Shown one piece after another: positions 5,550 through 63,704 of a stretch of 64,000 nt of DNA. The stretch lies in sequence record PZ027503.1, one strand, 5' to 3'. The notes under the pieces are model-generated. The model had not been told where the DNA came from, ran no database searches, and saw nothing but the letters and a program-made list of their open reading frames with translations. Every line of letters starts with the position of its first letter. The stretch's first letter is position 1. A program made the position numbers and the translations under genes. This DNA comes from a phage.

Positions 5550-5568
5550 GGGCTTCGGCCCTTTTATT
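5549..5568 (+). terminator. rho-independent terminator after primase-helicase
   Basis: AGGGC-TTCG-GCCCT hairpin followed by TTTTATT. Confidence 0.5.
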
Positions 5569-5579
5569 AAAAATACCTG

Positions 5580-5608
5580 TTGACAACTTTGCGGAAGGGA
5601 CTTATACT
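5580..5608 (+). promoter_or_regulatory. sigma70-like promoter
   Basis: TTGACA - 17 nt - TATACT, upstream of ATG at 5641. Confidence 0.55.
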
Positions 5609-5640
5609 TGTCTCATCAACCAAACAAGAGGAGAAGTAAA

Positions 5641-6072: not shown

Positions 6073-6081
6073 GGAGGACTA

Positions 6082-9891: not shown

Positions 9892-10110
9892 ATGCGTAAA
9901 TTAGTGAGCTTTAATGTTTCAATTCTTGTTGATGAACAAAATGAAGATGTTATTAAAGGTCTTGCAAATAAGATTGCAGGTGGAATGACGGAAGCTGAAG
10001 TGTGGGAAGAATGTGCTCGACTTTATGAGGAAGGTGTTATTGAGGTCTTGGGGGATGAGATTAATATGGACGATGTTGTAAAAGTAACTGTGGAGCGTAT
10101 CAATGACTAA
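9892..10110 (+). CDS. hypothetical protein (72 aa)
   Basis: ATG with AAGGAGAAAA SD. Confidence 0.45.
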   Translation: MRKLVSFNVSILVDEQNEDVIKGLANKIAGGMTEAEVWEECARLYEEGVIEVLGDEINMDDVVKVTVERIND

Positions 10111-10696
10111 ATCAAAACAAATCAATATTGCCAAAGAAATTCTTACCGTATTAAAGATCGCTGATCCTAATTCTGTCTTGGCTGGCGGTGCTGTTCGTGA
10201 TTGGCGTATTCTTGATATTGCTGGACGTGATCTGGATTTCTATACATCCCTTCCTGCACATCGGACTGAAGAACAAATACAAGGATTAATTGCATCTGCT
10301 TTAATGGGAACCAATATTCGTAAACTAGGAAACAAAGAGGCTTCTGACAATTATGAAGGTGTTACTGGTCTTAAACACGTTTTTGAGTTTGAACGTGATG
10401 GTCAGCTTTGCAACCTTATGATTATGGAACCAAGCGTAATGACAACCTTTCTAAATGAGTTCGATCTGTCCATCTGCCAGGCTGCATTTGATGGGAAGGA
10501 TTGTTATTATTCTAAAGATTTTGAAACAACCTTGGAAACAGGGATCTGCTTCTTGCACAAAGACGTTAGAGAAGATGCCAAACACGTTATTAAAATTGCT
10601 ACACGTTTCCCATATCTTCGTTTTGTGAAAGAGGTTAAGGTTCCACGTCCACCTCAAGTAGATACCAGATTGGAAGAAGATGATATTCCTTGGTAA
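10103..10696 (+). CDS. minimal Pol-beta superfamily nucleotidyltransferase (CCA-adding / poly(A) polymerase head-domain type) with acidic SSB-tail-like C-terminus
   Basis: LAGGAVRDWRILDIAGRDLDFYT matches the GGxVRD...DxD catalytic signature of CCA/PAP enzymes; ends EEDDIPW. Confidence 0.55.
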   Translation: MTKSKQINIAKEILTVLKIADPNSVLAGGAVRDWRILDIAGRDLDFYTSLPAHRTEEQIQGLIASALMGTNIRKLGNKEASDNYEGVTGLKHVFEFERDGQLCNLMIMEPSVMTTFLNEFDLSICQAAFDGKDCYYSKDFETTLETGICFLHKDVREDAKHVIKIATRFPYLRFVKEVKVPRPPQVDTRLEEDDIPW

Positions 10697-51351: not shown

Positions 51352-51430
51352 TGGAGGCGGGAATTGGATTTGAACCAATGATCTCCAGCATATGAAACTG
51401 GCGAGGACGACCAGACTCCTCTATCCCGCT
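51352..51430 (-). tRNA. tRNA-Met or Ile2 (anticodon CAT)
   Basis: Manual fold: anticodon stem CCAGT/GCTGG, loop TTCATAT, T-arm ATTGG-TTCAAAT-CCAAT, encoded CCA; A1:C72 mismatch. Confidence 0.5.
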
Positions 51431-51436
51431 ATTAGG

Positions 51437-51506
51437 TATCCCGTGCTGGATTCGAACCAGCATCACAATAAGTTGTGGAACTCTTATCCTGTAAGTCTAA
51501 CGGGAA
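51437..51506 (-). other. degenerate tRNA-like element
   Basis: T-arm GCTGG-TTCGAAT-CCAGC and acceptor-like pairing but no canonical anticodon arm and no CCA. Confidence 0.3.
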
Positions 51507-51508
51507 AT

Positions 51509-51582
51509 TGGTTGTTTCGACAAGAATCGAACTTGTGTCTCACGATTATCAGTCGTGGGTTCTACCATTGAACTACGAAACA
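51509..51582 (-). tRNA. tRNA-Ile (anticodon GAT)
   Basis: Manual fold: perfect acceptor TGTTTCG/CGAAACA, D-stem GTTC/GAAC, anticodon stem CACGA/TCGTG loop CTGATAA, T-loop TTCGATT, CCA. Confidence 0.65.
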
Positions 51583-51588
51583 TTAAAT

Positions 51589-51665
51589 TGGTCGGAATTG
51601 CAGGATTCGAACCTGCGACCCTACGCTCCCAAAGCGTATGCTCTACCAAACTGAGCTAAATTCCG
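51589..51665 (-). tRNA. tRNA-Pro (anticodon TGG)
   Basis: Manual fold: acceptor CGGAATT/AATTCCG, D-stem GCTC/GAGC, anticodon stem TACGC/GCGTA loop TTTGGGA, T-arm GCAGG-TTCGAAT-CCTGC, CCA. Confidence 0.65.
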
Positions 51666-51670
51666 TTATA

Positions 51671-51746
51671 TGGCTGGTCTGTCTGGATTTGAACCAAACC
51701 TACGACAGTCAAAGTGTCGTGTGCTACCTGACTACACTACAAACCA
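51671..51746 (-). tRNA. tRNA-Gln (anticodon TTG)
   Basis: Manual fold: anticodon stem CGACA/TGTCG loop CTTTGAC, T-loop TTCAAAT, CCA; D-stem pairing imperfect. Confidence 0.55.
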
Positions 51747-51844
51747 ATAAATCATTTAATGAAGGGCAACCAGAAGAGGTGTGAGAGAAGGAGAAAACCA
51801 TGAGTAAAAGAGAAAGTTTTCTGGCAACCCTTTATTAAATAATT

Positions 51845-51918
51845 TGGAGCGTTCTACGAGGATCGAACTCGTGCCGCCGACTTGGAAGGACGGAATGCTA
51901 CCGCTACACCAAGAACGC
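51845..51918 (-). tRNA. tRNA-Gly (anticodon TCC)
   Basis: Manual fold: acceptor GCGTTCT/AGAACGC, anticodon loop CTTCCAA, T-arm ACGAG-TTCGATC-CTCGT, CCA; one anticodon-stem mismatch. Confidence 0.55.
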
Positions 51919-51929
51919 CCTACATCTTT

Positions 51930-51959
51930 ACTATACTACATTTTACTATTGGTTGTCAA
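51930..51959 (-). promoter_or_regulatory. sigma70-like promoter for downstream tRNAs (minus strand)
   Basis: TTGACA - 18 nt - TATAGT read on the minus strand; ends about 12 nt upstream of tRNA-Gly 5' end. Confidence 0.55.
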
Positions 51960-52232
51960 TAGTTTTATTGAGTGGGACAGTGACGAGTATCCCATTGGGT
52001 GACTAGCCCTACGTTCGGTAAGCTAACTTAAAATAATACAAAACCAAAGTCAAATATTATTCTTCGTTGCTGTCGATGGGAGAGCCGCTTCTTCTTTTGC
52101 CCCATCCAACCCTACTCCGGTCAAGTTTCAGGTGACTCTTTGTGTGATCAACACAATACTAAGAACACTGTCTTTCGAACAGACCTTGTGCACAGGATAC
52201 GACGATCAATCACAGTGCCCTTAATGTTATGT

Positions 52233-52307
52233 TGGTGCTCCCACTCTGAATCGAACAGAGATCCACGGATTACAAAACCGTTGTAATAGCCATTATACTA
52301 TAGGAGC
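52233..52307 (-). tRNA. tRNA-Thr (anticodon TGT)
   Basis: Manual fold: acceptor GCTCCTA/TGGGAGC, anticodon loop TTTGTAA, T-arm CTCTG-TTCGATT-CAGAG, CCA; U31:U39 mismatch. Confidence 0.5.
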
Positions 52308-52313
52308 AAAACT

Positions 52314-52390
52314 GGGACTCGGCAGGATTCGATACCTGCAATTCCAGAAGCCTCTTGGCGACTGGGGGTTTACCTTAACTCTACAAGTCC
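52314..52390 (-). other. degenerate tRNA-like element
   Basis: Acceptor-like pairing GGACTTG/CGAGTCC and T-arm with 8-nt loop TATCGAAT but no canonical anticodon arm, no CCA. Confidence 0.3.
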
Positions 52391-52397
52391 ATAATTC

Positions 52398-52483
52398 TGG
52401 CGATGAGTATAGGATTTGAACCTATATCGTTCTTTCGAACACGGATTAACAGTCCGCCGCTTAAACCATTCAGCCAACTCATC
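52398..52483 (-). tRNA. unusual tRNA: Asn-type anticodon arm (GTT) in a class-II body with 15-nt variable region, G73
   Basis: Manual fold: perfect acceptor GATGAGT/ACTCATC, anticodon stem GCGGA/TCCGT loop CTGTTAA, variable hairpin GTTC-GAAA-GAAC, T-arm ATAGG-TTCAAAT-CCTAT, CCA. Confidence 0.45.
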
Positions 52484-52489
52484 TTAATT

Positions 52490-52577
52490 TGGTGGTGAGT
52501 GATGGAGTCGAACCACCCGAATCGCAATGATAACAGATTTACAGTCTGCCCCGCTACCCCTACGGAATTAACTCACC
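52490..52577 (-). tRNA. tRNA-Tyr (anticodon GTA)
   Basis: Manual fold: acceptor GGTGAGT/ACTCACC, anticodon stem GCAGA/TCTGT loop CTGTAAA, long variable arm, A73, CCA. Confidence 0.6.
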
Positions 52578-52707
52578 TAAATACTAATATTTAAATTCTT
52601 TTTAAAATAGCCAGTGTTCACACCACTAACTATGAGTTATCGGTAAAGTGGTTACCGCCACTTGCCGAAGATTTACTCTGCTAAAGTAAGCTATATTAAA
52701 AAGAACT

Positions 52708-52793
52708 TGGCGGTAGATGTAGGACTCGAACCTACACGCCGTTTCCGACTACAGTTTAGCAAACTGTCGTGGCTACCATTTCACCAATCTACC
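52708..52793 (-). tRNA. tRNA-Ser (anticodon GCT)
   Basis: Manual fold: acceptor GGTAGAT/ATCTACC, D-stem GTG/CAC, anticodon stem ACAGT/ACTGT loop TTGCTAA, long variable arm, T-arm GTAGG-TTCGAGT-CCTAC, G73, CCA. Confidence 0.65.
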
Positions 52794-52798
52794 TAATC

Positions 52799-52889
52799 TG
52801 GCGGAAGGAGGGAGAGTCGAACTCCCAAGGCTCTTTCAAGCTCGGCGGTTTTCAAGACCGTTTTCGTCGCCACGTCGATTTGCCCTTCC
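52799..52889 (-). tRNA. tRNA-Ser (anticodon TGA)
   Basis: Manual fold: acceptor GGAAGGG/TCCTTCC, anticodon loop CTTGAAA, long variable arm, T-arm GGGAG-TTCGACT-CTCCC, G73, CCA; D-arm irregular. Confidence 0.5.
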
Positions 52890-52897
52890 ATACTTAT

Positions 52898-52927
52898 AAT
52901 CTAACATAAAATAATGTTAGTTGTCAA
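52898..52927 (-). promoter_or_regulatory. sigma70-like promoter inside tRNA array (minus strand)
   Basis: TTGACA - 18/19 nt - TTAGAT/TAGATT; about 10 nt upstream of tRNA-Ser(TGA) 5' end. Confidence 0.45.
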
Positions 52928-53123
52928 TAGTTTTTTAAAACATTTTACCATGAATGGTGACTCCACCAACCCCCGTTCTCAACGAACGGTGCTCTTCGAG
53001 CATTTATGTCTTCTAATATAACCGTGGCCTTTGTTTATAATGTCTGACATACTTGCCTCATTCTCTGCCACCATGATCAGTAGTGGGTTCAAATCACTTG
53101 AGCTAATTCATGTTAAAATGTTC

Positions 53124-53198
53124 TGGTGTCTTTACAAGGAATCGAACCTTGACTAAGAGTTTAGAAGACTCCTGTGCTATCCATTACACCATAAAGAC
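53124..53198 (-). tRNA. tRNA-Arg (anticodon TCT)
   Basis: Manual fold: acceptor GTCTTTA/TAAAGAC, D-stem GTGT/GCAC, anticodon stem GGAGT/ACTCT loop CTTCTAA, T-arm CAAGG-TTCGATT-CCTTG, CCA. Confidence 0.65.
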
Positions 53199-53200
53199 GT

Positions 53201-53275
53201 TGGTGGCCCTGGCTGGTTTCGATCCAGCTACCTATCGGTTATGAGCCGACAGCTCTCCCATTGAGCTACAGGGCC
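53201..53275 (-). tRNA. tRNA-Met (anticodon CAT)
   Basis: Manual fold: acceptor GGCCCTG/CAGGGCC, D-stem GCTC/GAGC, anticodon stem GTCGG/CCGAT loop CTCATAA, atypical T-loop ATCGAAA, CCA. Confidence 0.55.
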
Positions 53276-53484
53276 ATAAATGTGGTAACAGAGACGCTGA
53301 CGATTGTAGAGAACCGCTACATTCTCTAAGACCAAGCCCAACTTTCAGCGTAAAAGTTCTTGAGCCGAGACTATTCCTTTTCCTCTTTGGTAGCTAACCT
53401 CTGAAGAAGTAGTCTCTAACACTACCGCAGTGCAAGCCCCTCTTAACAAAAGTCAACGACCCTGTTACCACACTTGATGAACGT

Positions 53485-53514
53485 ATCCTAACATATGAAG
53501 GATACGTTTGTCAA
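53485..53514 (-). promoter_or_regulatory. sigma70-like promoter at the head of the tRNA array (minus strand)
   Basis: TTGACA - 18 nt - TAGGAT read on the minus strand; followed by about 200-nt leader before tRNA-Met. Confidence 0.5.
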
Positions 53515-53521
53515 TAGTTAT

Positions 53522-53771
53522 TTAAGCATATTCTGCTACCTCTTCACTATCTTTCTTTTCCAGAAGAGCAACAACCAAAGCTTCTGCGTTAAAAGTATTA
53601 ATTTCAAGATCCATCTCTCGCATCAGAGCCAAGAAATCAATAACTTTAACATCTTTAGTGATTACAATAGAAGTTGTACCATTGTTTTCAGATGTGTATT
53701 TTTCTGGATGGAAAAGAAAAACTGCATTGCCGTTACCATCTTCAAACACGTGTTTTTCTAATAGAGACATT
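53522..53771 (-). CDS. hypothetical protein (83 aa)
   Basis: ATG with AGGAGG SD on the minus strand; track ORF extends further upstream without SD. Confidence 0.4.
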
Positions 53772-53778
53772 GTTCCTC

Positions 53779-53994
53779 CTAATCTGTTAGTTGTTCGTCC
53801 TCTACCAAGTTTGACACGAGAACGTCTGTTATACATTGATGCTGATAAACCCTTTCGGGACTATCATCAAAAGCCAAACCTGTGCAAATAGAACAGAGGT
53901 CTGATTCCTTGATGACTCCATTTTTATCACGTCTGGAGTGGTTTGTCAAATGCCTATTACAAGCACGGCACCTAAAATAAAAGCTGTTTTGCAT
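53779..53994 (-). CDS. hypothetical zinc-finger protein (72 aa)
   Basis: CRAC...CSIC; ATG with GAAGGA SD; track ORF extends to 54030. Confidence 0.4.
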   Translation of the reverse strand: MQNSFYFRCRACNRHLTNHSRRDKNGVIKESDLCSICTGLAFDDSPERVYQHQCITDVLVSNLVEDEQLTD

Positions 53995-54067
53995 ATATCC
54001 TTCGAACCCCAAATGGGGAGTGATCGGCATCTCCTCACTTCTAGTTTAGCACGAAGGATATCTTAAG

Positions 54068-54253
54068 TCAACTAGGAATAATTTTATCCTTTTTGGTTTC
54101 ATAACCAGTCCAATCTAAATCCTCCCAGCCTTCATCATCGTCTAACACATTGTCGTCATCATAAGATGCAATGTTATAAATAGAACGTGGATTACAAGAC
54201 ATACAATCTTTAATAGGCACATGATGCCATTTGCACGGATTCTCACTAATCAT
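54068..54253 (-). CDS. hypothetical Cys-rich protein with acidic C-terminus (61 aa)
   Basis: ATG with GGAGG SD on the minus strand; CKWHH..CMSC then DDDNVLDDDEGWEDLD. Confidence 0.4.
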   Translation of the reverse strand: MISENPCKWHHVPIKDCMSCNPRSIYNIASYDDDNVLDDDEGWEDLDWTGYETKKDKIIPS

Positions 54254-54736
54254 TGCACACCTCCATTCTTGTTAAGATGTTCCGTACTGTACTTCATACT
54301 GATCTATAGATCAAGTATTATTTATAATAATTTATTATTTTATTTTTAATTGATAGAAGTTGATCTGTACGTACCAGTTCTGATACACTGTACCTGTTGG
54401 TTAGATCTAATAATTATTTATTATTAATATTTAATAATTATTAATCTAGTACGGAATACAGTACTTGAGTACAGAGTACTACATCAACAACCTTAAAACC
54501 TTAACTCGCTGCGCTCGTTAATAGATTTCTAGGGTAGCATACTTCGAACACAAAAGTCAAGAGTTTTATTAAAAAATTATTTTCTGTGTGCAAAAACCTT
54601 GCTTAAACAGGTAGCAATAGTATAGCCTATAACACAAGCTTCATAAGAGGCTCGTAGAGCAAGTTTACTTACTAGGTAAGGTGATTTATCATCTTATATA
54701 TAAAAAGTGCGTCAGAGACGCGTTTAGGAGGCCAGA
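54254..54736. promoter_or_regulatory. AT-rich divergent intergenic control region with palindromes and GTAC/GATC repeats
   Basis: 483 bp without ORF between divergent operons; palindromes GATCTATAGATC, TTAGATCTAA, GTACGTAC; inverted TTCCGTACT / AGTACGGAA; long AT tracts. Confidence 0.4.
54286..54314 (-). promoter_or_regulatory. candidate promoter for minus-strand gene ending at 54253
   Basis: TTGATC - 17 nt - TACAGT read on the minus strand; weak match. Confidence 0.3.
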
Positions 54737-55060
54737 ATGAGATTTACAAGACAAGAGGTAGTTGTGCTGGACGAAGCAATGACAATGATCGTCTTTTACT
54801 ATGAAGATATCTTCTGTGCAGCATATCATTTAAATGACATTCAGATTGAATGGCAGCAGATAGCATTCCTGTTGGACAAGAGTAATCATTTGGATGGCTT
54901 TGAGTATTTGGAGTGGGATGGTGCAAAGGAAGTTAAAATTGTAGGGTTAAATCACGATCAGATTGTTGACATGCAATGTAAGTTGTGTCATTATCAGTTC
55001 TCAAACAAAGTCAAACTCGAAAGGCAATTGGAGGTGGTTAAAGATGATAGCACTAATTAG
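54737..55060 (+). CDS. hypothetical early protein (107 aa)
   Basis: ATG with AGGAGG SD. Confidence 0.45.
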   Translation: MRFTRQEVVVLDEAMTMIVFYYEDIFCAAYHLNDIQIEWQQIAFLLDKSNHLDGFEYLEWDGAKEVKIVGLNHDQIVDMQCKLCHYQFSNKVKLERQLEVVKDDSTN

Positions 55061-55160
55061 TGAGAATCCAGTCCTGACAACAATTGTTCTGATTTTTGCC
55101 ATGTGTGTGGTTCACGATGTTCTGGTAAGTTATTTTGACAACAAAGGAGGTAAGAAATGA
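55044..55160 (+). CDS. hypothetical small membrane protein (38 aa)
   Basis: ATG with GGAGGTGG SD; single TM helix VLTTIVLIFAMCVV; track ORF from 54963 overlaps the previous gene. Confidence 0.3.
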   Translation: MIALISENPVLTTIVLIFAMCVVHDVLVSYFDNKGGKK

Positions 55161-55351
55161 AAGACGTTATTCAAATGGTATTCCGTGTAACTCTAGATGG
55201 TATACACGTTGTTAAAGGCACACAGAACTACACAGAAGCGAAAGAACACTTCTTAGAGTGGATTGATACACTGAAGACACAAGATGTGTCCTACAGCCGT
55301 GTTACGCTTACTGGCGACCATACCCCAATCATGGAGTACGTAAAGAAATGA
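55157..55351 (+). CDS. hypothetical protein (64 aa)
   Basis: ATG with GGAGG SD. Confidence 0.45.
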   Translation: MKDVIQMVFRVTLDGIHVVKGTQNYTEAKEHFLEWIDTLKTQDVSYSRVTLTGDHTPIMEYVKK

Positions 55352-55587
55352 GCAACTATCCAATTACAGGCGTAACCTATTCTTGTGTAGCAAAAGGTGG
55401 TTTATATACGGTAGTGGAATTTCCAAAACCTGCCGGAATATCTAAAGTGTTTGATCCTGTGGTTATCTATGAAGATCTTAGAACAGGTCAACGTTACTGG
55501 AGATTTGTGAATGACTTTTTAGATCGTATGGAGGTAGTAAGTGGCGAAAACACCGAAGAAGTTATCAAAGCCAAAGAACGTTACTAA
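55348..55587 (+). CDS. hypothetical protein (79 aa)
   Basis: ORF track; overlapping start/stop. Confidence 0.4.
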   Translation: MSNYPITGVTYSCVAKGGLYTVVEFPKPAGISKVFDPVVIYEDLRTGQRYWRFVNDFLDRMEVVSGENTEEVIKAKERY

Positions 55588-55894
55588 GAAACCGAAAAAC
55601 GAGGTTCTCAAAGTAGCCAAATCAGTTCCTAAGAAAGATAAATTTGATACGGAGGCATTCGTCTTTGACACACCAATCGAGAAGATTGAAGAAGCGTTGC
55701 AACGTCTTGAGGAGCAGGAGGCAGATCCAATGGCTGAACCACTCACGGCAGACCAAATTTATTGGTGGGGAATATGGACTTTGCAACTGCCAGAAGCAAA
55801 AAGAAGAGGAATGACTTCAGTTCCTACTTGTGCAAAAGAAGCGGCTGTGTTAGGTTTGTATGAGAAATCTAAAAAGAGGAGCAAAAAGAAATGA
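55541..55894 (+). CDS. hypothetical Lys-rich protein (117 aa)
   Basis: GTG with GGAGG SD; N-terminal KKLSKPKNVTKKPKNEVLKVAKSVPKK. Confidence 0.4.
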   Translation: MAKTPKKLSKPKNVTKKPKNEVLKVAKSVPKKDKFDTEAFVFDTPIEKIEEALQRLEEQEADPMAEPLTADQIYWWGIWTLQLPEAKRRGMTSVPTCAKEAAVLGLYEKSKKRSKKK

Positions 55895-56172
55895 TCAAGA
55901 CTTTTCTGAAGTGTGTAAAAGCAACAGATAATGAGTGGTACTCTGGATTATTCACTGCTGGCAAGAAATACGAGATCCTCAACGGAACAGGCAAGAAGTT
56001 TTCTCTTGTTGTAAATGATGAAGGAACGAAGCAAATGGTATTTGCTGAAAGTTCTGTTTATGGTATCTTTGAAGTAGTGCAAGAAGGCTCTCCAATGATT
56101 CTGGAGTATCATGGCACTAATAAACCATATACTGCTATGGATGTTATCAACAACAAGAGGAATGCAAAATGA
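55891..56172 (+). CDS. hypothetical protein (93 aa)
   Basis: ATG with GAGGAG SD. Confidence 0.45.
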   Translation: MIKTFLKCVKATDNEWYSGLFTAGKKYEILNGTGKKFSLVVNDEGTKQMVFAESSVYGIFEVVQEGSPMILEYHGTNKPYTAMDVINNKRNAK

Positions 56173-56351
56173 TTTTACTCTATTCCGGTAAGGCAAAATA
56201 CATGCAAGGTGTTAAACGTGTAGAGGTTACTAAGACAGTAACAATCGGGAAATCTTTTATCGTTTATTATTTCCTTGTTAATGGGAAGGAGTATGCTGTA
56301 GCAAAGACCTTGGTTGATAAGGGTAAAACGTGGAAAGTGGAGGCACTATGA
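56169..56351 (+). CDS. hypothetical protein (60 aa)
   Basis: ATG with GAGGA SD. Confidence 0.4.
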   Translation: MILLYSGKAKYMQGVKRVEVTKTVTIGKSFIVYYFLVNGKEYAVAKTLVDKGKTWKVEAL

Positions 56352-56554
56352 TCCCTATAGCTGGGTGGGTGGTATTGGCAACACTTAATGGGAATGTTAC
56401 TGTGGAGACTAAAACCATCTTCAAAGCACCAGAAGATTGCTATAACTCCTTGGTAACTTGGCCTCGTGATGAAGATGATAAGTCAGAGTATCAGTGTTTT
56501 TACATTGAGGGCAAGCCTGTAGAATTTGAGGTTAAAGTGAAGGAGGAAAAATGA
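56348..56554 (+). CDS. hypothetical protein (68 aa)
   Basis: ATG with GGAGG SD at 56348; the track start at 56330 lacks an SD. Confidence 0.4.
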   Translation: MIPIAGWVVLATLNGNVTVETKTIFKAPEDCYNSLVTWPRDEDDKSEYQCFYIEGKPVEFEVKVKEEK

Positions 56555-57021
56555 AAATTAAAGTAACTAAAGCTTACGATGATAACCCGAAGTTTATCTC
56601 TTTGAATAAGAGCTATGGTATCGAAAACGGTGATGAGTTCGAGGTTATCGATCTTTTTGAGGACCACGGGTATATTGTCAAAGCCCCAATCACAGAGCAG
56701 GCTATTATCATCTTACGCACAGAGGCTGTTGAGGTAGGTTCTGATGAGCCTCAATATGACAGCCCATACATGACAGAGTGGATCGTAGCTGTGGATGTTG
56801 GAGGTATGGTTTCTGTACTGAAAGCTCCTAATCTCCATCCTGGTTTTACAGAGAACGGTAAGACAGCTTTGGATTATGGGTTGCCAGAAGATGTTGAGAA
56901 TACACCGCCAGGTATGTACCGTTGGATTTGCTCTTTCCATGAAGAGAAGGATTGGGAATCAGGACTTGTTGATGATTGGCATTTTGAAGTGGAAAGTTCT
57001 TTTTTGATCATGCCAGCTTAA
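56551..57021 (+). CDS. hypothetical protein (156 aa)
   Basis: ATG with AAGGAGG SD. Confidence 0.45.
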   Translation: MKIKVTKAYDDNPKFISLNKSYGIENGDEFEVIDLFEDHGYIVKAPITEQAIIILRTEAVEVGSDEPQYDSPYMTEWIVAVDVGGMVSVLKAPNLHPGFTENGKTALDYGLPEDVENTPPGMYRWICSFHEEKDWESGLVDDWHFEVESSFLIMPA

Positions 57022-57031
57022 AGGAGGTTAT

Positions 57032-57376
57032 ATGAAAGTTTGGATAGATGATATGCGGAACCCAGCCGACTATGGACAGGAAGATGCAATTTGGTTTAAA
57101 ACGTCACAAGAAGCTATGGCCTTTCTCAATGATCCTGCTAAACTGTATCGAAGAGTAACCGAGTGGTCTTTTGACAATGATTTAGGTATGGAGTCAGACC
57201 AAGATGGGTATGATGTTTTCCTGCACCTGGAAGAACTTCTGGCGTTTGGTAAACCTTGCTTTGGTTCACCTACCATTTTCGTGCATACTTCTAATCCCGC
57301 CGCTGGGGATAAATTCATGCTTGCAAAAGAATCCATGCAGCGTTATGGTATTAAAATGATTCGTGTGCACTACTAA
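57032..57376 (+). CDS. hypothetical protein (114 aa)
   Basis: ATG with AAGGAGG SD. Confidence 0.45.
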   Translation: MKVWIDDMRNPADYGQEDAIWFKTSQEAMAFLNDPAKLYRRVTEWSFDNDLGMESDQDGYDVFLHLEELLAFGKPCFGSPTIFVHTSNPAAGDKFMLAKESMQRYGIKMIRVHY

Positions 57377-57385
57377 GGAGAGAAC

Positions 57386-57529
57386 ATGCATCATTCGGTT
57401 TGGTCGGAACAAGAAGAGGACGAAGGTTACTTTATCTACAGAGAAGAAGAGGATTGGCCCGACACAAGCAATGATCTTTTACTTCCAGATACTAGTTTTT
57501 TCGAGGATAATTTAAGAGAGGAGGATTAG
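57386..57529 (+). CDS. hypothetical small highly acidic protein (47 aa)
   Basis: ATG with AAGGAGAG SD; about 40 percent Asp/Glu; below the ORF-track cutoff. Confidence 0.35.
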   Translation: MHHSVWSEQEEDEGYFIYREEEDWPDTSNDLLLPDTSFFEDNLREED

Positions 57530-57535
57530 GAAACA

Positions 57536-57892
57536 ATGAGTGGTATTGAAAACAACATTTGTTACCAACCTCTTACCTGGATGGGTGAGGGTCATTATGC
57601 GCAACGTGTTATTGTCTGTGCTGCAAATAAGTATATTTTGAATAATGGCGAAGAGTTAATTATTCCTTGTGTTCGACATGCAAATCCTGTACTATATGCA
57701 CAGTTAAACGTGTTGAAAGAAGCAGGTGTAATCAACAAAACTTTGTGCACACCAGATAATCAAGGCTTTATCGATCAGTATTACAATTGGTGGAGTCGTG
57801 CGGATGCTTACATCATCGCGGAAAATGCTGACCAGATCGACCATGAGCGTAATGGTCACGACCATGAATTATTTAGCGAGGGATTATACTAA
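57536..57892 (+). CDS. hypothetical protein (118 aa)
   Basis: ATG with GAGGAGG SD. Confidence 0.45.
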   Translation: MSGIENNICYQPLTWMGEGHYAQRVIVCAANKYILNNGEELIIPCVRHANPVLYAQLNVLKEAGVINKTLCTPDNQGFIDQYYNWWSRADAYIIAENADQIDHERNGHDHELFSEGLY

Positions 57893-58443
57893 TGTTTATT
57901 ACAAGCGATTTGCATTTTATGCATAAACGCATTCGAGAGTTTGCTCCTGAATATCGTCCGTGGGAAGATATGGACCACATGACAGAAGCCTTGATCGAAG
58001 CATGGAACAAATGTGCTACTACCCCTGGTGTTAAGATGTGGCATTTGGGCGACTTCTGTTTCGGGACTGAAGAAGATACCCGTAAGATTGCTTCCCGTCT
58101 GCAAGGGGATATCACTTATCTTGTTGGGAACCATGATTACAGCAAGCACCGAGAAGTGCTTGCAGAGTATGGCGAAGTGGTGTATTATGACGAAGTGAAA
58201 TACCAGAAGCTGTTCTTCGTCTTAAGTCATTACCCTATTGCCTCCTGGAATAAACAAGGTCGTGGATCAATCATGCTACACGGGCATTCCCACGGATCTT
58301 TCCCTGATGAAGCTTATGGTAAAATGTTAGATGTGGGTTGGGATGCACACGGAAAAATCTTGCATTTTGATGAGATAATTTCTATGATGAGTAAACGAGA
58401 TATCGTGACTGTAGACCATCACAAAATAATCAAAGGAGAGTAA
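57892..58443 (+). CDS. calcineurin-like metallophosphoesterase (putative RNA 2',3'-cyclic phosphate / 3'-phosphate healing phosphatase)
   Basis: Motifs SDLHF (DxH), LGDFCFG (GD), VGNHDY (GNHD), LHGHSHG (GH). Confidence 0.6.
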   Translation: MFITSDLHFMHKRIREFAPEYRPWEDMDHMTEALIEAWNKCATTPGVKMWHLGDFCFGTEEDTRKIASRLQGDITYLVGNHDYSKHREVLAEYGEVVYYDEVKYQKLFFVLSHYPIASWNKQGRGSIMLHGHSHGSFPDEAYGKMLDVGWDAHGKILHFDEIISMMSKRDIVTVDHHKIIKGE

Positions 58444-58444
58444 T

Positions 58445-59377
58445 GTGACTAAATTTAATTGCGACGATTTGGTTGAAAAAGGTTTAGTTCATAAGAAAAC
58501 ATATAAAGAAGGAGAGTATTCTGGTCTATCTATTCTTAAGTATAAGAACAAAGTTTTCTGGGATAACTTATGGAGCATTGATTCTCGTCTTCTAGAATGT
58601 CGCGGAATCGTTGTTGATGCTGATGACAATGTTGTTATTTGGCCTTTCACTAAGATTTTTAATCGTTTTGAGAATGGCACAGATCTACCAGCGGATGAAC
58701 TTGTAGATGTGGTTCGTAAAGTAAATGGTTTTATGGCCTCTGTAGGTGTATATAAAGGTCAACTTATTGTATCGACAACAGGAAGCCTTGAATCAGATTT
58801 TGCAAGTATTGCAAAGAATCATATTGTTTCAGAGTGCGATGACATAGAACATTTCATCAAATGGGCAGAGAGTGCAAAAGCAACTTTCCTGTTTGAAATC
58901 TGTGATCCTTCTGATCCACATATTGTCGAAGAAGAACCAGGTGCATACTTAATTGGTGCCAGAATTCAAAATCCTGATGGGACAAGTTTTATGTTACCTG
59001 AAGGTGCTCTTGATGGAATTGCTTCTGTCACCAAATTTAAGCGTCCTGAAGTTCATCCAATGGTTAAGTTTTCAGATGTTGTTGAAATGTCTAAACATTG
59101 TAAACACGAAGGGTTTGTAGTTCGTGAAACAAACTATCCGTTCAACTTACTTTTAAAAATTAAATCACCACACTATCTTACTAAGAAGTTTCTTATGCGT
59201 GGTGGAGATAAAAAGTGGGATCTGATTTGGGATAATCCAAAAAATGCCAAACAAATTGTTGACGAAGAATATTACGCTTTGTTAGAATGGATTCGAAATA
59301 ATTTTACGAAGACTCAATGGGCTGCTTTAAATCAGCAAGAGCGACGTGAAAAAATCGAAAACTTCTTTGGAGGATAA
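58445..59377 (+). CDS. RNA ligase (T4 Rnl1-like)
   Basis: Nucleotidyltransferase motif I RKVNG, motif IV EGFVV, motif V LKIKSPHYL (compare T4 Rnl1 FKIKSDHYL as recalled); GTG start with AAGGAGAG SD. Confidence 0.6.
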   Translation: MTKFNCDDLVEKGLVHKKTYKEGEYSGLSILKYKNKVFWDNLWSIDSRLLECRGIVVDADDNVVIWPFTKIFNRFENGTDLPADELVDVVRKVNGFMASVGVYKGQLIVSTTGSLESDFASIAKNHIVSECDDIEHFIKWAESAKATFLFEICDPSDPHIVEEEPGAYLIGARIQNPDGTSFMLPEGALDGIASVTKFKRPEVHPMVKFSDVVEMSKHCKHEGFVVRETNYPFNLLLKIKSPHYLTKKFLMRGGDKKWDLIWDNPKNAKQIVDEEYYALLEWIRNNFTKTQWAALNQQERREKIENFFGG

Positions 59378-59782
59378 ATGAAACAACTTATCATTTTACG
59401 TGGCGTTTCAGGTGCTGGTAAATCTACGGTAGCAGAAATTATTTCTGAAGGTTATTGGCCTATCTGTGAGGCAGATCAATATCATTACACAGAAAGTGGT
59501 GTTTACGATTGGAAGCCAGAAAATGTAGGTAAAGCACACGCATGGTGTCAGAGTATTGTTCGTGATGCTATGGCATCTAATCTTAACAAGATTATTGTTT
59601 CTAACACTTCAACCACAGAGAAAGAACTTAAACCTTATCTAACTCTTGCTGAAGAGTTTGGTTATCAAGTTATCTCTTTAGTTGTTGAAAATAGGCACGG
59701 TAATGATTCAATTCACGAGGTTCCACAATATATTCGTGATCAGCAAGAGAAACGTCTTCGTGGTTCACTTAAACTTCAATAA
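59378..59782 (+). CDS. P-loop polynucleotide 5'-kinase-like protein
   Basis: N-terminal Walker A LRGVSGAGKST; 134 aa; adjacent to ligase and phosphatase. Confidence 0.55.
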   Translation: MKQLIILRGVSGAGKSTVAEIISEGYWPICEADQYHYTESGVYDWKPENVGKAHAWCQSIVRDAMASNLNKIIVSNTSTTEKELKPYLTLAEEFGYQVISLVVENRHGNDSIHEVPQYIRDQQEKRLRGSLKLQ

Positions 59783-59791
59783 GGAGTAATA

Positions 59792-60118
59792 ATGCAGATT
59801 TATACAGATGATCGTAAATATGAGACAATTTTAGATGAAAACACGGGACGAATCACAATCTTGCGCCACGGGGAAGAGTGGCGAGATGAAACTGGGGATA
59901 ACTATATCTTGTCTCTGATTCATCTTATTGAACAAATGCGTGATGATTACGCTGAACTGCATTATGAAAATGAGGCTAATAAAGTAAAATTTGAAAATGA
60001 ATTAGAAGAGAAAGAATCCGAAATGGTATATCTAAAAGAAGAGATCTCCCGTTTGGAGGAAGAGATTGATGCTCTTCAAGAAGAGATTTACGAACTCAAC
60101 AACGAACTTAACGCTTAA
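59792..60118 (+). CDS. hypothetical coiled-coil protein (108 aa)
   Basis: ATG with AAGGAG SD; C-terminal heptad-like EEISRLEEEIDALQEEIYEL. Confidence 0.45.
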   Translation: MQIYTDDRKYETILDENTGRITILRHGEEWRDETGDNYILSLIHLIEQMRDDYAELHYENEANKVKFENELEEKESEMVYLKEEISRLEEEIDALQEEIYELNNELNA

Positions 60119-60126
60119 GGAGGATT

Positions 60127-60318
60127 ATGAAAAAAGATATCGTTGTTGTTGGTTGGCTGACTTGCCCTTGTGGTAGTAATGACATAACTGTAAACACAGA
60201 GGGTGATAAAAATTATTTATTCTACGGGGATAAAATCACTTGCAATACCTGCGGACGTGTTGGTATTATAGAAACCGATGATTGTTGTGCTTTTGAATCT
60301 TGGGATGAAGAAGAATGA
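60127..60318 (+). CDS. small zinc-ribbon protein (63 aa)
   Basis: CPCG...CNTCG; ATG with AAGGAGG SD. Confidence 0.45.
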   Translation: MKKDIVVVGWLTCPCGSNDITVNTEGDKNYLFYGDKITCNTCGRVGIIETDDCCAFESWDEEE

Positions 60319-60536
60319 GTACTGCATTTTATGTTCGTAGCGGAGACGAGGATTTTCTAGCTACTTTTGATGACGGTGATCTTGAAGATATGTATGAAGA
60401 TATGCTTGACTATGCCAAAGGGCAAGGTTTCACAAGCATTGATTACATGTTGGCAACATCTACAACGTTACTCGACGCAGATTTGGATGAAGTGTGTAAC
60501 AGATTGAAAATTTCAGTTTTTAAATGGGAGGACTAA
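60315..60536 (+). CDS. hypothetical acidic protein (73 aa)
   Basis: ORF track; stop overlaps next start. Confidence 0.4.
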   Translation: MSTAFYVRSGDEDFLATFDDGDLEDMYEDMLDYAKGQGFTSIDYMLATSTTLLDADLDEVCNRLKISVFKWED

Positions 60537-61651
60537 TGCAACAAACAAATCAAACGCTGTATGGTAAAGATTCAAAAGGAAAACTTAAACAGTGGACAGT
60601 GTATACAGATGGTGCAGTTGTTACTGTAGCTCATGGAAGAGTAGGTGGAAAAATCACAGAAAAATCTTATACAGCAGAAGCAAAAAACATTGGTCGTTCC
60701 AATGAAACAACACCGGAAGAACAAGCTGAACTTGAAGCTTTTGCCAAATGGACAAAACAGTTAAAGAATGGCTATTATAGAACAAAAGAAGAAGCTGAAA
60801 ACCATGTTCCTTCCACACCAATGAAATGCCAGGATTATAAAGATTATCCTGAAAGGGTTGTGTTCCCTGGTTATGCACAATACAAACTGAACGGGTTACG
60901 TTCTATGATTAACATGAAAGGAGAGTGTTTATCAAAAGCTGGGGAAGTGTATAACCTGCCACCTCATTGGAAAGGTATTCCAAACTTTATTAGTGAAGTT
61001 GTTGGTCATCCTCTTGATGGTGAAGTGTTTGCTGGGTTAGGTGTCCTTAGTCTGCAACAAATTAACAGCGCCTGGAAGAAGCATAATGCAAATACACCTT
61101 TGCTGAATTATTACGTATACGATATTCCAGTTCCAGATCTACCGTTTGAAAAACGTGTTGATGTTCTTGCTGCTCTTAAGGCAGTAGTTGAAGATTATGG
61201 TCTTGACGAGCTTATTTGCGTAGTTCATACAGAGTATATTGAAAACCAAGAACAGTTTGATGCTTTCTATGAAAAAGCTTTACTTGAGAAAGCTGAAGGT
61301 GTAGTATATCGTAATGCTCACGGAGTTTACGAATTTGATAAACGTTCTTATGACGTTATTAAACGTAAGCCTCGCCACACCCTTGAAGTTAAAGTAACAA
61401 ATTCAAAAAGTGATAAAAATGGTGATGGAGTGTTGACAGGTGAGATGGAAAATGGTAAAGTAGTCGAATTCTTAATGCGTAAAGATGCTCATGAGACTAT
61501 CAATTATCGTAAAGCAGAGAATGCTTCTACCTTGATTAATCAGTTCGTTGAAATAGAGTATGAAGAATTTTCAGATGAAGGTATTCCAACAAAACCTGTT
61601 GGTGTTCGTATTCGAGAAATGATCCCAGGCACTTGGGAACCAGCAGAATAA
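60536..61651 (+). CDS. ATP-dependent ligase (probable DNA ligase)
   Basis: Motif I KLNGLR, motif III LDGEVF, motif IV EGVVYR, motif V VIKRKP; ATG with GGGAGGA SD (track start at 60524 lacks an SD). Confidence 0.6.
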   Translation: MQQTNQTLYGKDSKGKLKQWTVYTDGAVVTVAHGRVGGKITEKSYTAEAKNIGRSNETTPEEQAELEAFAKWTKQLKNGYYRTKEEAENHVPSTPMKCQDYKDYPERVVFPGYAQYKLNGLRSMINMKGECLSKAGEVYNLPPHWKGIPNFISEVVGHPLDGEVFAGLGVLSLQQINSAWKKHNANTPLLNYYVYDIPVPDLPFEKRVDVLAALKAVVEDYGLDELICVVHTEYIENQEQFDAFYEKALLEKAEGVVYRNAHGVYEFDKRSYDVIKRKPRHTLEVKVTNSKSDKNGDGVLTGEMENGKVVEFLMRKDAHETINYRKAENASTLINQFVEIEYEEFSDEGIPTKPVGVRIREMIPGTWEPAE

Positions 61652-61660
61652 GGAGGAAAA

Positions 61661-61855
61661 ATGTTCTTAGCCATTTTAATCGTTTTCAGTGTGCTTTCTT
61701 TTTATTGTATGAATGCTTCGGAAAGCTTTCCTAAGAATTCAAAGAAAAGAACCGTATGTATTGCGATTGATTCATGTATGTCTGGAGTTGGGTATGCGGT
61801 AGTTTCTTGCTTCTTAGCTTATCATTGTGCAAAATACCTGGAGGCATTTTTATGA
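61661..61855 (+). CDS. hypothetical small membrane protein (64 aa)
   Basis: ATG with AAGGAGG SD; N-terminal TM helix. Confidence 0.4.
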   Translation: MFLAILIVFSVLSFYCMNASESFPKNSKKRTVCIAIDSCMSGVGYAVVSCFLAYHCAKYLEAFL

Positions 61856-62034
61856 TAATTTTAGCAACAATTCTTATGATGTTGATAGCAATTGCTATTG
61901 TAATTCTGGCATCTTTTCCGGCGGATAAATGGTATTTCAATATTCCACGTATGCTTGTTTTCGGTTTCGCAGGAATTTACATGGGTGAGACTGTAGTAAA
62001 TATTAGCAACTTTCTAGAAAGCTATTTTAAATAA
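61852..62034 (+). CDS. hypothetical small membrane protein (60 aa, two TM helices)
   Basis: ATG with GGAGG SD overlapping upstream stop; track ORF from 61774 lacks an SD. Confidence 0.4.
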   Translation: MIILATILMMLIAIAIVILASFPADKWYFNIPRMLVFGFAGIYMGETVVNISNFLESYFK

Positions 62035-62043
62035 GGAGTTATA

Positions 62044-62769
62044 ATGATCGAGAATTTTTTTAAAGATATTAAATTCGATACTGAATTTTTCAAAAATGCA
62101 GCAAAGCACGTGATTGATTGGAATGCCAAAGCACGAGGTGGTGAACAACCTGAATTCACTCAAGAGCTATTTATGTCCCAAATCGGGTTCGTTCGTGAAG
62201 AGCTTAAAGAGTATGAAACAGCCGCGAAAGTAAACGATCATGTAGAACTCTTGGATGCAGCAGCGGATATTTTTGTAGTATCCAGTTATCTTACTTACAT
62301 GTTCTTTGGTGAAGAACATACGATGAATTTCTTGGACTATGCTGTAGGCGATGTTTTTACTCCAACTGTGTATACTGATTTTGATGCTTTGGAACAAACA
62401 TTTACAGAGCCAGTTCAAATGGCACTAATGGCTGCTGGTATTATGCGTATGTCTCGTGACACTCTAATCCGTTCAAAATATCCAGAAAAGAAAGTTATTA
62501 AAGAGGTATTGAAAAGTAATGATTCCAAGTATCCAACTAAACAACAGTTGCTGAAAACTTGGAAAACTTCAGATATCGATTCAGCCATTGCACAAGAATG
62601 CGCTGCAATTGAAGAACGAAATGCCAATCGTCCAGAAGGGGCATACACTGGTGTTCATGCTGTTTATAATGAAAAACAGAAAGTGTATGTGTTCTTTGAT
62701 GATAAAGGTAAGATCATGAAACCATCGACCTTTGTCAAACCTAATATTGCAGGTATTATTAACAAGTAA
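62044..62769 (+). CDS. putative MazG-like nucleotide pyrophosphohydrolase (241 aa)
   Basis: REELKEYETAAK...VELLDAAADIFVV resembles the MazG EExxE...ExxD metal-binding helices; tentative. Confidence 0.4.
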   Translation: MIENFFKDIKFDTEFFKNAAKHVIDWNAKARGGEQPEFTQELFMSQIGFVREELKEYETAAKVNDHVELLDAAADIFVVSSYLTYMFFGEEHTMNFLDYAVGDVFTPTVYTDFDALEQTFTEPVQMALMAAGIMRMSRDTLIRSKYPEKKVIKEVLKSNDSKYPTKQQLLKTWKTSDIDSAIAQECAAIEERNANRPEGAYTGVHAVYNEKQKVYVFFDDKGKIMKPSTFVKPNIAGIINK

Positions 62770-62825
62770 TGTTGTAAGCCGCCCTTTACGGGCGGTAATG
62801 TGAGATGTATTAAATAGGAGGAAAC

Positions 62826-63704
62826 ATGTTTGTAAAATCTTTTAAATCCGCTCTGCCTATGGTTGTTGGTGACAATGCTTCTGTAGCATCCCTTAACAAC
62901 ATTACAGATATTCCTCTGGAATTTGTAACAGCAGAAGGCTCCCAGTCACACACTATCGGTCTTGTTCGTTTCGAAGATGACTCTAAATTTGTAAAAGAGT
63001 TCTCAGATCTTGAACTACTTAATGTAGGTCAATCTGTGAAGAAGGTAGATAAAAAGAAAGTTAAACGTATTCTGAATGAACGTCTAGAAGAAATGCGTCA
63101 GGACATGGAGAGCGAAGGTAAAGAGTTTTATGTCGATAAAGAAGTAGTCAAAGCAATGAAGGAAGATATTGAATTTGCACTATTGCCTGAAACAGAACCT
63201 GAAGATTTCTTTAACTATGTTGTCTTGGATAAAACTACGAATCTTCTTTATGTTCTTAATGGAAGTAAAAAGGTTGCAGAAGAGATTACTTCTTTCCTCC
63301 GTTCCGTTCTGGGGACTTTCCCTTCGGTAGGTTTTAGTGTGCACGAAGAAGCTATTGTAAAAGGTTTTGGTGAATTGCTGGAGAATCATGAAGCAGATCG
63401 TATTACTCTCGGAAATTATATCAAAATGGAGGATAGCGAGGGCGTTGTTGTTTGGAGTAAAGAATCCCTATATGAGTCTAAAGCTGTCGAACTAAAAGAA
63501 GATGGTAAAGATGTGGTTGCAATCGGTCTTGAATATGACGGTGTTGTAGATTTTGTAGTGGATAAAGAGTTTAAACTTTCTAAACTACGTTTTCCGAAAT
63601 ATTTTGCAGACGAAGAAGGTAGTATTGAAGCTTCAGTCCTTCTGTGCTTCAATGAGATTCGAGGTCTGATGGAAGATTTAACCAAAGCAACAATCCTTAA
63701 ATAA
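62826..63704 (+). CDS. hypothetical protein (292 aa)
   Basis: ATG with AGGAGG SD. Confidence 0.45.
   Translation: MFVKSFKSALPMVVGDNASVASLNNITDIPLEFVTAEGSQSHTIGLVRFEDDSKFVKEFSDLELLNVGQSVKKVDKKKVKRILNERLEEMRQDMESEGKEFYVDKEVVKAMKEDIEFALLPETEPEDFFNYVVLDKTTNLLYVLNGSKKVAEEITSFLRSVLGTFPSVGFSVHEEAIVKGFGELLENHEADRITLGNYIKMEDSEGVVVWSKESLYESKAVELKEDGKDVVAIGLEYDGVVDFVVDKEFKLSKLRFPKYFADEEGSIEASVLLCFNEIRGLMEDLTKATILK

Follow-up and report, generated by a model that had tools for sequence, protein, structure and literature searches.

The stretch of phage DNA analysed here (sequence record PZ027503.1, 64,000 nucleotides in full length, hereafter the window) carries, between positions 57892 and 59782, three adjacent genes on the + strand, which encode a predicted binuclear metallophosphoesterase, a predicted ATP-dependent RNA ligase of the Rnl1/Trl1 clade and a stand-alone protein resembling P-loop polynucleotide 5'-kinases. 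The proteins of this cassette probably form an RNA healing-and-sealing pathway, a reading to which we assign a probability of about 70%, and their likely role would be the reversal of damage caused by host defence RNases. For the more specific proposal that the natural substrate is tRNA cut by anticodon nucleases, the odds are roughly even. The observations behind this reading are family membership, intact catalytic motifs, operon-like packing and an evolutionary linkage that extends to gene fusions.

In the proposed pathway, a metal-independent RNase of the host (a PrrC/RloC-type anticodon nuclease or another defence RNase) would cut tRNA or other RNA, so that the broken ends carry a 2',3'-cyclic phosphate and a 5'-OH. 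Of these, the cyclic phosphate end would be turned into a 3'-OH by the metallophosphoesterase (57892-58443), perhaps alone, and a cREC protein encoded upstream of the trio (57032-57376) may first open the cyclic phosphate. The P-loop kinase (59378-59782) would phosphorylate the 5'-OH with a nucleoside triphosphate. Finally, the Rnl1-like ligase (58445-59377) would adenylylate itself on K92 and transfer the AMP to the 5'-phosphate, and the break would be sealed.

The three encoded proteins

The original prediction, made from the letters of the window alone, had placed three co-oriented open reading frames (ORFs) in this region, and all three were recovered on the + strand exactly where it put them. 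The phosphoesterase gene spans 57892-58443 (183 amino acids, ATG start; COG4186/aq_1665-like; phrog_547, E 1e-55), the ligase gene 58445-59377 (310 amino acids, GTG start; PF09511; phrog_562, E 1e-70) and the kinase gene 59378-59782 (134 amino acids, ATG start; AAA_33; phrog_2071, E 3e-56). The motifs described for each protein were also present in the translations: D6-L-H8, G53-D54, G79-N80-H81-D82 and H132-x-H134 in the phosphoesterase, K92-V-N-G95, E222-G-F-V-V and K238-I-K240-SPHYL in the ligase, and the P-loop G9-VSGAGKST17 in the kinase.

The stop codon of the ORF upstream overlaps the phosphoesterase start (TAATG), the ligase start is preceded by AAAGGAGAG-TAA-T-GTG and that of the kinase by GGAGGA-TAA-ATG. 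The junctions of the trio show translational coupling, and the genes are packed in an operon-like manner. A consensus scan of 53200-62900 for promoters and terminators gave counts no higher than those of shuffled controls.

With single sequences as queries, the PDB gave no match to the ligase and nothing above noise for the kinase, and family profiles were therefore needed. In Pfam, the ligase matched PF09511 (RNA_lig_T4_1) with 56.6 bits against a cut-off of 28.3 (E 4.4e-15), covering the model in full (1-227). Its family profile, which comprised 30 sequences, matched T4 Rnl1 (2c5u) at E 2e-10. Invariant in the 30 homologues were K92 and G95 of motif I, E151 of motif III, E222-G223 of motif IV and K238 and K240 of motif V, together with R53, K70 and F72 outside these motifs. 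Hidden Markov model (HMM) alignments, which relate these proteins to the T4 enzymes at about 20% identity and are not structural superpositions, paired R53, K70, F72, K92, G95, E151, E222, G223, K238 and K240 of the ligase with T4 R54, K75, F77, K99, G102, E159, E227, G228, K240 and K242, respectively. We take these ten T4 residues and K119 to be the essential residues of the T4 Rnl1 alanine scan; ten of the eleven are conserved in the ligase family.

The AlphaFold2 (AF2) model of the ligase had a predicted local distance difference test (pLDDT) score of 92.3. Its ten best Foldseek matches were fungal Trl1 ligase domains (Trl1-LIG) and T4 Rnl1, with E values of 4e-13 to 1e-11 and template modelling (TM) scores of 0.61-0.63, and Rnl3, Rnl2, Rnl5 and DNA ligases came lower in the ranking. 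On the Pfam result, the profile match to T4 Rnl1 and the modelled fold, the protein is predicted to be an RNA ligase of the Rnl1/Trl1 clade. The profile alignment to 2c5u stops at motif V, and the C-terminal region of the model is a helical bundle of 66 residues.

The kinase matched AAA_33 with 40.5 bits against a cut-off of 27 (E 4e-10), and also phrog_505, labelled 'polynucleotide kinase' (E 2e-8). In 33 homologues, both the P-loop RGxxGxGK[ST]T (R8-G9-x-x-G12-x-G14-K15-S-T) and D33 were invariant, and the family has a conserved motif of its own, H113-x-V115-P116. When the family profile was compared with the PDB, the T4 Pnk domain ranked first (1ly1/1ltq, E 8.5e-9), with an alignment over its full length. 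Next came two fungal kinases, Capnocytophaga Pnkp1, PSTK (the seryl-tRNA(Sec) kinase), CthPnk and mammalian PNKP, and the matches to gluconate, adenylate and shikimate kinases were at least 1000-fold weaker. In the 1ly1 alignment, D33 was paired with a T4 Asp, D35 of T4 Pnkp, which is presumably the general base. R106, in the NRHG motif, aligned near T4 R122, which with R126 we take to be a lid Arg, yet was not invariant. By these profile matches, the protein appears closest to the kinase domain of T4 Pnkp and to other polynucleotide 5'-kinases. Its 134 residues make up a kinase domain only, with no T4-type C-terminal HAD (DxDxT) 3'-phosphatase, and the claim that the phosphatase would be of the calcineurin type rather than the HAD type and carried on a separate polypeptide was borne out.

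In 32 diverse homologues of the phosphoesterase, H8, G53-D54, G79-N80-H81, H113, H132 and H134 were invariant and D6 was nearly so, and the protein has the full set of metallophosphoesterase metal-ligand motifs (DxH, GD, GNH[DE], H, GHxH). The family is very large: 11,423 cluster representatives were counted at an E cut-off of 1e-3. Its profile matched 1xm7 (Aquifex aq_1665) in the PDB at E 1e-23, with GpdQ, MJ0936 and YfcE as marginal matches. The predicted membership of the superfamily is secure. The action of this enzyme on 2',3'-cyclic or 3'-phosphate ends of RNA is proposed by guilt by association, from synteny and fusions, because its subfamily has no characterised member. All three family assignments of the original prediction thus held in profile searches, and that of the ligase held in structural modelling with Foldseek as well.

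One relative of the phosphoesterase is of unusual build: P0241, a representative of 202 amino acids, is 68% identical to residues 1-133 of the phosphoesterase of the window and then runs straight into the C-terminal part of the kinase, which points to a natural loss of the ligase by deletion or to an artefact of assembly.

Linkage in other phages and in bacteria

IMG/VR was scanned by pattern and by tblastn with the ligase profile, which yielded 80 loci with ligase homologues of 36-87% identity. The ORFs of related loci were called mechanically (longest ORFs) and then searched with iterated HMMs of each window protein. Linkage was counted in the 60 IMG/VR loci in which the ligase homologue was flanked on either side by 3 kb of sequence or more. 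Among them, a kinase lay no more than 3 kb from the ligase in 57, a phosphoesterase in 51 and both in 48. These counts overstate the number of independent events, as the IMG/VR loci are not phylogenetically independent. The genes of the cassette were almost always on the same strand and their order varied by lineage, with phosphoesterase-ligase-kinase and kinase-ligase-phosphoesterase arrangements and, in Vequintavirus, the kinase and phosphoesterase divergent from the ligase.

Kinase and ligase were found as a single polypeptide in 11 viral loci (L050-L068, e.g. L050:9569-10834), with a length of 421-432 amino acids and the kinase in N-terminal position; one copy is cut by a contig end. No phosphoesterase or other phosphatase was detected near these 11 fusions.

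A scan of bacterial genomes gave 56 loci, 55 of them from uncultured oral Campylobacter. In 54 of the 56, a kinase-ligase fusion of about 497 amino acids has a phosphoesterase homologue as the very next gene. The Campylobacter modules (L091-L145; e.g. L130, with the fusion at 5383-6876 and the phosphoesterase at 6957-7556) are surrounded by ordinary chromosomal genes (AIR synthase-like, a two-component system, SodC) and contain no DNA ligase; the contigs reach 472 kb in length. This two-gene module seems to be the cassette in a cellular form.

Fusions of the phosphoesterase were surveyed in the 150 closest representatives of its relatives. P0243, which is 53% identical to the phosphoesterase of the window, is fused to a PF09414 RNA_ligase domain of the Rnl2 type, and P0272 and P0265 are fused to PF18143 HAD_SAK_2, a HAD domain known from the 'Swiss army knife' proteins of RNA repair. 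P0243 (524 amino acids) is encoded on L146, a phage-like JGI metagenome contig of 58 kb with the cassette at 4263-8224. The order there is cREC, an unrelated gene, the phosphoesterase::Rnl2-like fusion, a small ORF, Rnl1, the kinase, more genes and a DNA ligase, so that the locus encodes two RNA ligase domains. Its cREC, phosphoesterase and kinase are 41-55% identical to those of the window, and its Rnl1, of T4 length, only 25%. L146 therefore represents a ligase displacement within a conserved cassette.

Rearrangements, fusions, bacterial occurrences and ligase displacement are independent lines of evidence for the linkage. The proposal that the three proteins act as a joint functional unit is strongly supported by the persistence of the linkage across rearranged and distant phages, by the kinase-ligase fusions and by the fusions of the phosphoesterase to RNA-ligase and RNA-repair HAD domains.

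Neighbouring genes and alternative readings

In a database comparison, the window proved to come from a Phapecoctavirus: its best genome matches, at 97.6-98.4% identity, included the Phapecoctavirus phages ECO340P1, phAPEC8_ev052, ESCO13 and Schickermooser, and 43 records matched the region at 95-99% identity. The matched relatives are E. coli myophages of about 150 kb (Stephanstirmvirinae, phAPEC8-like). The Schickermooser record already labels the trio 'putative phosphoesterase or phosphohydrolase', 'putative RNA ligase' and 'putative polynucleotide kinase', and in the records of further relatives the ligase is labelled 'putative RNA ligase/RNA repair'. The cassette and its relatives occur in 731 phage records, with Escherichia, Pseudomonas, Vibrio, Klebsiella, Acinetobacter, Streptomyces and others as hosts, and many of these phages are candidates for therapy. 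The + strand block that carries the cassette starts at about 54.7 kb, divergent from a tRNA array, and the cassette sits in the early/middle region of the Phapecoctavirus genome, devoted to replication and nucleotide metabolism.

A gene overlooked by the original prediction lies on the + strand at 57032-57376, 0.5 kb upstream of the trio, and encodes a cREC protein of 114 amino acids (PF20274 cREC_REC, 62.4 bits against a cut-off of 27, E 6.5e-17; phrog_1479). The acidic and Thr/Ser/Lys positions typical of receivers (D6-D7, D48 and D50, T86-S87 and K93) were conserved in 14 of 14 homologues (motifs WxDD, FDNDLG, VH[TS]SNP and KFMLA). No histidine kinase was found among the genes neighbouring cREC, where RNA-repair genes are present instead. 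Linkage of cREC with the ligase was seen in 14 of 85 loci, 10 of which belong to the 60 used for the linkage counts; all 14 are from enterobacterial Stephanstirmvirinae or Vequintavirinae, and the distant L146 is one further case with the gene in the same position. In Vequintavirinae it is immediately downstream of the ligase, and in Phapecoctavirus 1.4 kb upstream. cREC, a domain of receiver fold, has been predicted to be a cyclic-phosphate-processing enzyme linked to RNA ligases (Iyer et al., PMC7824862, PMC9503650). In the same neighbourhood as the trio, it is a candidate for the first step of 3' end healing.

If so, 3' healing could be a two-enzyme chemistry new among characterised repair systems, in which cREC would act first and open the cyclic phosphate, with an aspartyl-phosphate as a conceivable intermediate, and the COG4186-type enzyme would remove the monoester; the triad would then be a mobile, self-sufficient module of phages and bacteria that tolerates replacement of its ligase. 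This extension of the healing-and-sealing reading is tentative, and we regard it as rather unlikely in its full form.

Two further genes are located between cREC and the trio. The small acidic ORF at 57386-57529 (+; 47 amino acids; phrog_18323, E 9e-35) is a coding sequence in the annotation of relatives, was found in close relatives only (3 loci) and is probably a bystander. The T4_Y16D-family gene at 57536-57892 (+; 118 amino acids; PF26092) was considered as a fifth component and rejected: elsewhere it occurs in unrelated contexts, and in L146 another gene takes its place. The model of its product (pLDDT 94) had no fold neighbour in the PDB, and the gene probably belongs to the cassette by position only and is not a functional member. 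Further upstream, a lysine-rich protein of 117 amino acids (55541-55894, +; phrog_6208) is encoded near the cassette in 14 related loci.

The 12-gene tRNA array of the original prediction, at 51352-53275 on the minus strand and 4 kb from the cassette, proved essentially right and counts in favour of the healing-and-sealing reading. ARAGORN detected 10 genes, and Rfam 11 above threshold plus a 12th tRNA-like element below it. The two missed by both ARAGORN and the GenBank annotations, at 52493-52577 and 52803-52889 on the minus strand, are tRNA-like elements of type II, with a long variable arm. Their anticodon loops were read by eye; one of the two would be Tyr(GUA), above the Rfam threshold with 39 bits, and the other Ser(UGA), below threshold with 37 bits against the tRNA-Sec model. 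A CCA-type nucleotidyltransferase had also been proposed for 10103-10696 (+). This ORF matched PHROG 'nucleotidyltransferase' families only, with no Pfam and no PDB sequence match, and the 'CCA-type' label was not confirmed. A GGAVRD...DLD motif was seen by eye in this protein, which with 197 amino acids is too short for a full CCA-adding enzyme.

In relatives, NAD-linked genes flank the cassette: Prs-like genes in 34 loci, NAMPT-like in 28, HD_4 in 20, SIR2 in 13 and Macro in 12. In Pakpunavirus-like loci (L005 from PAK_P1, L069-L076 and others), the cassette is flanked by HD_4 (a RelA/SpoT-type hydrolase), a pair of Prs-like and NAMPT-like genes and a Macro gene. The pair presumably resembles the NARP1 NAD-reconstitution pathway, and these surroundings look like a counter-defence island. 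In Schickermooser (MK373788.1), a SIR2-like protein and a second metallophosphoesterase, of the Ser/Thr-phosphatase type, are encoded at 18770-19585 and 25508-26251, beyond the limits of the window; their distances from the cassette are about 30 and 24 kb, and a part in the processing of RNA ends is conceivable for either.

The strongest alternative to full removal of the 3' phosphate is a chemistry of the yeast/plant type, in which cREC or the phosphoesterase would leave a 2'-phosphate and a 3'-OH, sealing would proceed with the 2'-phosphate in place, and this would then be removed by a phage sirtuin, in an NAD-dependent manner, or by the metallophosphoesterase. Such a route would fit the fungal Trl1 ligase domains, which were level with T4 Rnl1 in Foldseek, the SIR2 gene that adjoins ligase-cREC-kinase in Vequintavirinae, the recurrence of SIR2, NAMPT-like/Prs-like and Macro genes beside the cassette in relatives, and the presence of a SIR2 gene in Schickermooser, which is 98% identical. 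Iyer et al. (2022) argue for 2'-phosphate/sirtuin chemistry in V5 and Mydo (PMC9503650). However, tblastn detected no homologue of sirtuin, NAMPT, Prs, HD or Macro proteins in the 64-kb window, the distance between the SIR2 gene and the cassette of Schickermooser is large, and 47 of the 60 loci had no sirtuin nearby, whereas the phosphoesterase was nearly always present. With a dedicated phosphomonoesterase predicted, full removal of the 3' phosphate by the T4/Cth route is the simpler reading, and we consider the yeast/plant-type route improbable.

The genes downstream of the cassette bear on a second alternative. An ATP-dependent DNA ligase is encoded 0.7 kb downstream, at 60524-61651 (+), and is followed by recombination exonucleases and a MazG/PRA-PH-like pyrophosphohydrolase (62044-62769, +); in 29 of the 60 loci, a DNA ligase lies within 3 kb of the RNA ligase. 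The trio could be a general nucleic-acid end-processing module for the phage's own DNA replication, recombination or repair, which would clean 3'-phosphate/5'-OH DNA ends for the neighbouring DNA ligase, with the Rnl1-like protein incidental; T4 Pnkp acts on DNA as well as RNA. However, the constant linkage and the fusion partner of the kinase involve the RNA ligase and not the DNA ligase, the latter being missing from the Campylobacter module. Moreover, the fusions of the phosphoesterase family are to RNA-ligase and RNA-repair HAD domains, and the fold of the ligase groups with tRNA ligases, far above DNA ligases. This alternative is very unlikely in our judgement.

Least probable of all is that the genes are independent neighbours, encoding a nucleotide kinase, a protein phosphatase or a phosphodiesterase of cyclic-nucleotide signals, and a ligase that attaches tail fibres like T4 gp63, as the database labels 'ATPase' and 'RNA ligase and tail fiber protein attachment catalyst', the uncharacterised phosphoesterase subfamily and the term 'nucleotide kinase', the only one used for the kinase by Iyer et al. 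(PMC9503650), would allow; the linkage survives rearrangement, extends over phage lineages with ligases of 36-87% identity and into bacteria, and comes with two independent kinds of gene fusion, and the tail-fibre role is a second activity specific to T4, whereas the ligase gene here is in a non-structural region.

Several findings weigh against the healing-and-sealing reading itself. For the ligase, T4 K119 aligned to an invariant Thr (T112) in the family, and the NCBIfam equivalog model of T4 RnlA (TIGR02308) gave 24.9 bits against a cut-off of 242, over residues 42-165 only. The 120-residue C-terminal domain of T4 Rnl1, which we take to be its tRNA-specificity domain, is absent; on these comparisons the protein is not an orthologue of T4 RnlA. 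For the kinase, the position aligned to T4 Pnkp R38, presumably the acceptor-binding Arg, is not conserved: the residues after D33 are variable, with Q-Y-H in the window. For the phosphoesterase, the Pfam Metallophos_2 score of 22.6 is below the curated cut-off of 27, the one solved structure of the subfamily, 1xm7, is a structural-genomics protein with no assigned function, and the search of the family profile against the PDB (E up to 1) did not return the chains of lambda phosphatase or the CthPnkp phosphatase. Moreover, 9 of the 60 loci had no phosphoesterase nearby, and Pfam scans of their recurrent neighbours revealed no substitute phosphatase. cREC is limited to enterobacterial lineages (the 14 of 85 loci above), and its function is itself a prediction. 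The cassette genes are inside a long polycistronic block that adjoins DNA ligase and recombination genes, and their proximity within the window alone is therefore weak evidence. Finally, several elements of the reading are predictions from sequence: what each enzyme does, that RNA (tRNA) is the substrate, how cREC and phosphoesterase divide the work, and that the cassette counters defence.

Comparison with known repair systems

The cutting of RNA, and of tRNA in particular, is a common bacterial defence, used by PrrC, RloC, PARIS, retron-associated PtuAB, OLD, Cas13 and Cas12a3. To our knowledge, T4 Pnkp/Rnl1 is the only such counter-measure studied experimentally. If the cassette is active, it would affect which defences are escaped by phages that are candidates for therapy (Phapecoctavirus, Vequintavirus, Pakpunavirus), and it would provide a first function for aq_1665/COG4186 phosphoesterases and for cREC. 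The kinase-ligase and phosphoesterase/Rnl2-like-ligase fusion proteins are convenient targets for biochemistry.

In T4, Pnkp and Rnl1, which counter PrrC, provide the same three activities needed here: a 5' kinase, a 3' phosphoesterase and an Rnl1-type ligase. The kinase of the window is closest to the T4 Pnk domain and its ligase is close to T4 Rnl1. In contrast, the proposed 3' healing enzyme of the window is a separate protein of the binuclear metallophosphoesterase type, whereas that of T4 is a HAD (DxDxT) domain. The ligase, with 310 amino acids, has a C-terminal domain of 66 residues instead of the 120 of T4, and Thr in place of K119. The genes of the window are also adjacent and translationally coupled, with cREC as an extra component, whereas those of T4 Pnkp and Rnl1 are not adjacent.

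The bacterial Pnkp-Hen1 and Pnkp1-Rnl-Hen1 systems of Clostridium thermocellum and Capnocytophaga gingivalis have the same domain repertoire, which in the window is split into three proteins. These systems combine a P-loop 5' kinase and an ATP-dependent ligase with a metallophosphoesterase in the role of 2',3' phosphoesterase (PMC2190708, PMC3675462, PMC4411300). The binuclear metallophosphoesterase of CthPnkp is a 2',3'-cyclic phosphodiesterase and monoesterase, and both it and lambda phosphatase can act alone (PMC2190708). The window differs in its phosphoesterase, which belongs to the aq_1665/COG4186 type and whose sequence could not be related to the lambda-phosphatase-like module, and in its ligase, which is of the Rnl1 type. 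A Hen1 methyltransferase was neither annotated nor detected in the cassette and the scanned neighbours, the rest of the window not having been searched for it.

Fungal and plant Trl1 (LIG-KIN-CPD), which works with Tpt1, has an Rnl1-clade ligase domain that is the best structural match of the ligase of the window. The cyclic phosphodiesterase domain of Trl1 belongs to the 2H type, and Tpt1 takes the 2'-phosphate away at a later step. A kinase joined to a ligase, as in the fusions of relatives, is a further likeness, but the order in the relatives is kinase-ligase, the reverse of Trl1. The C-terminal cyclic phosphodiesterase domain of Trl1 makes the 2'-phosphate needed for sealing (PMC6379707, PMC10946426). 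The scans of the window, which covered the cassette and a set of neighbouring genes, revealed neither a 2H nor a Tpt1/KptA gene.

Among phages, the nearest precedent is the type 2 sirtuin-centred RNA-repair neighbourhood described by Iyer et al. (2022) in V5 and in Proteus phage Mydo (PMC9503650, section 3.7.3). The Mydo and Vequintavirus loci are direct homologues of the locus of the window, and all five components listed for that neighbourhood, which includes MazG, were found within 57032-62769. The gene order differs, and the sirtuin has no counterpart in the window (tblastn). The phosphoesterase is occasional in the type 2 neighbourhood, whereas in the loci compared here it is the rule (51 of 60) and the sirtuin is in the minority (13 loci). 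Pakpunavirus phages (PAK_P1, Adele) have a homologous ligase (38-39% identity), kinase and phosphoesterase within 1.5 kb; in contrast to the window, cREC is missing from their loci, where HD_4, NAMPT-like/Prs-like and Macro genes are found in addition. For Adele, tRNA repair by the homologous kinase and ligase was proposed in 2025, and the missing 3' phosphatase domain of the kinase was remarked upon, although the nearby phosphoesterase was not assigned to that step (PMC12846349).

The concept of RNA repair is thus established and had already been predicted for these phages (Iyer et al., 2022; PMC12846349; GenBank annotations). The new observations are that the phosphoesterase is a regular third partner and the sirtuin an occasional one, that both healing enzymes are found in fusions, that the module is also present in bacteria and that the ligase can be displaced within a conserved cassette. 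Compared with the known systems, that of the window follows the logic of T4 Pnkp/Rnl1 with the domain repertoire of bacterial Pnkp split into separate proteins, an Rnl1-type ligase, a metallophosphoesterase of another subfamily and an added cREC.

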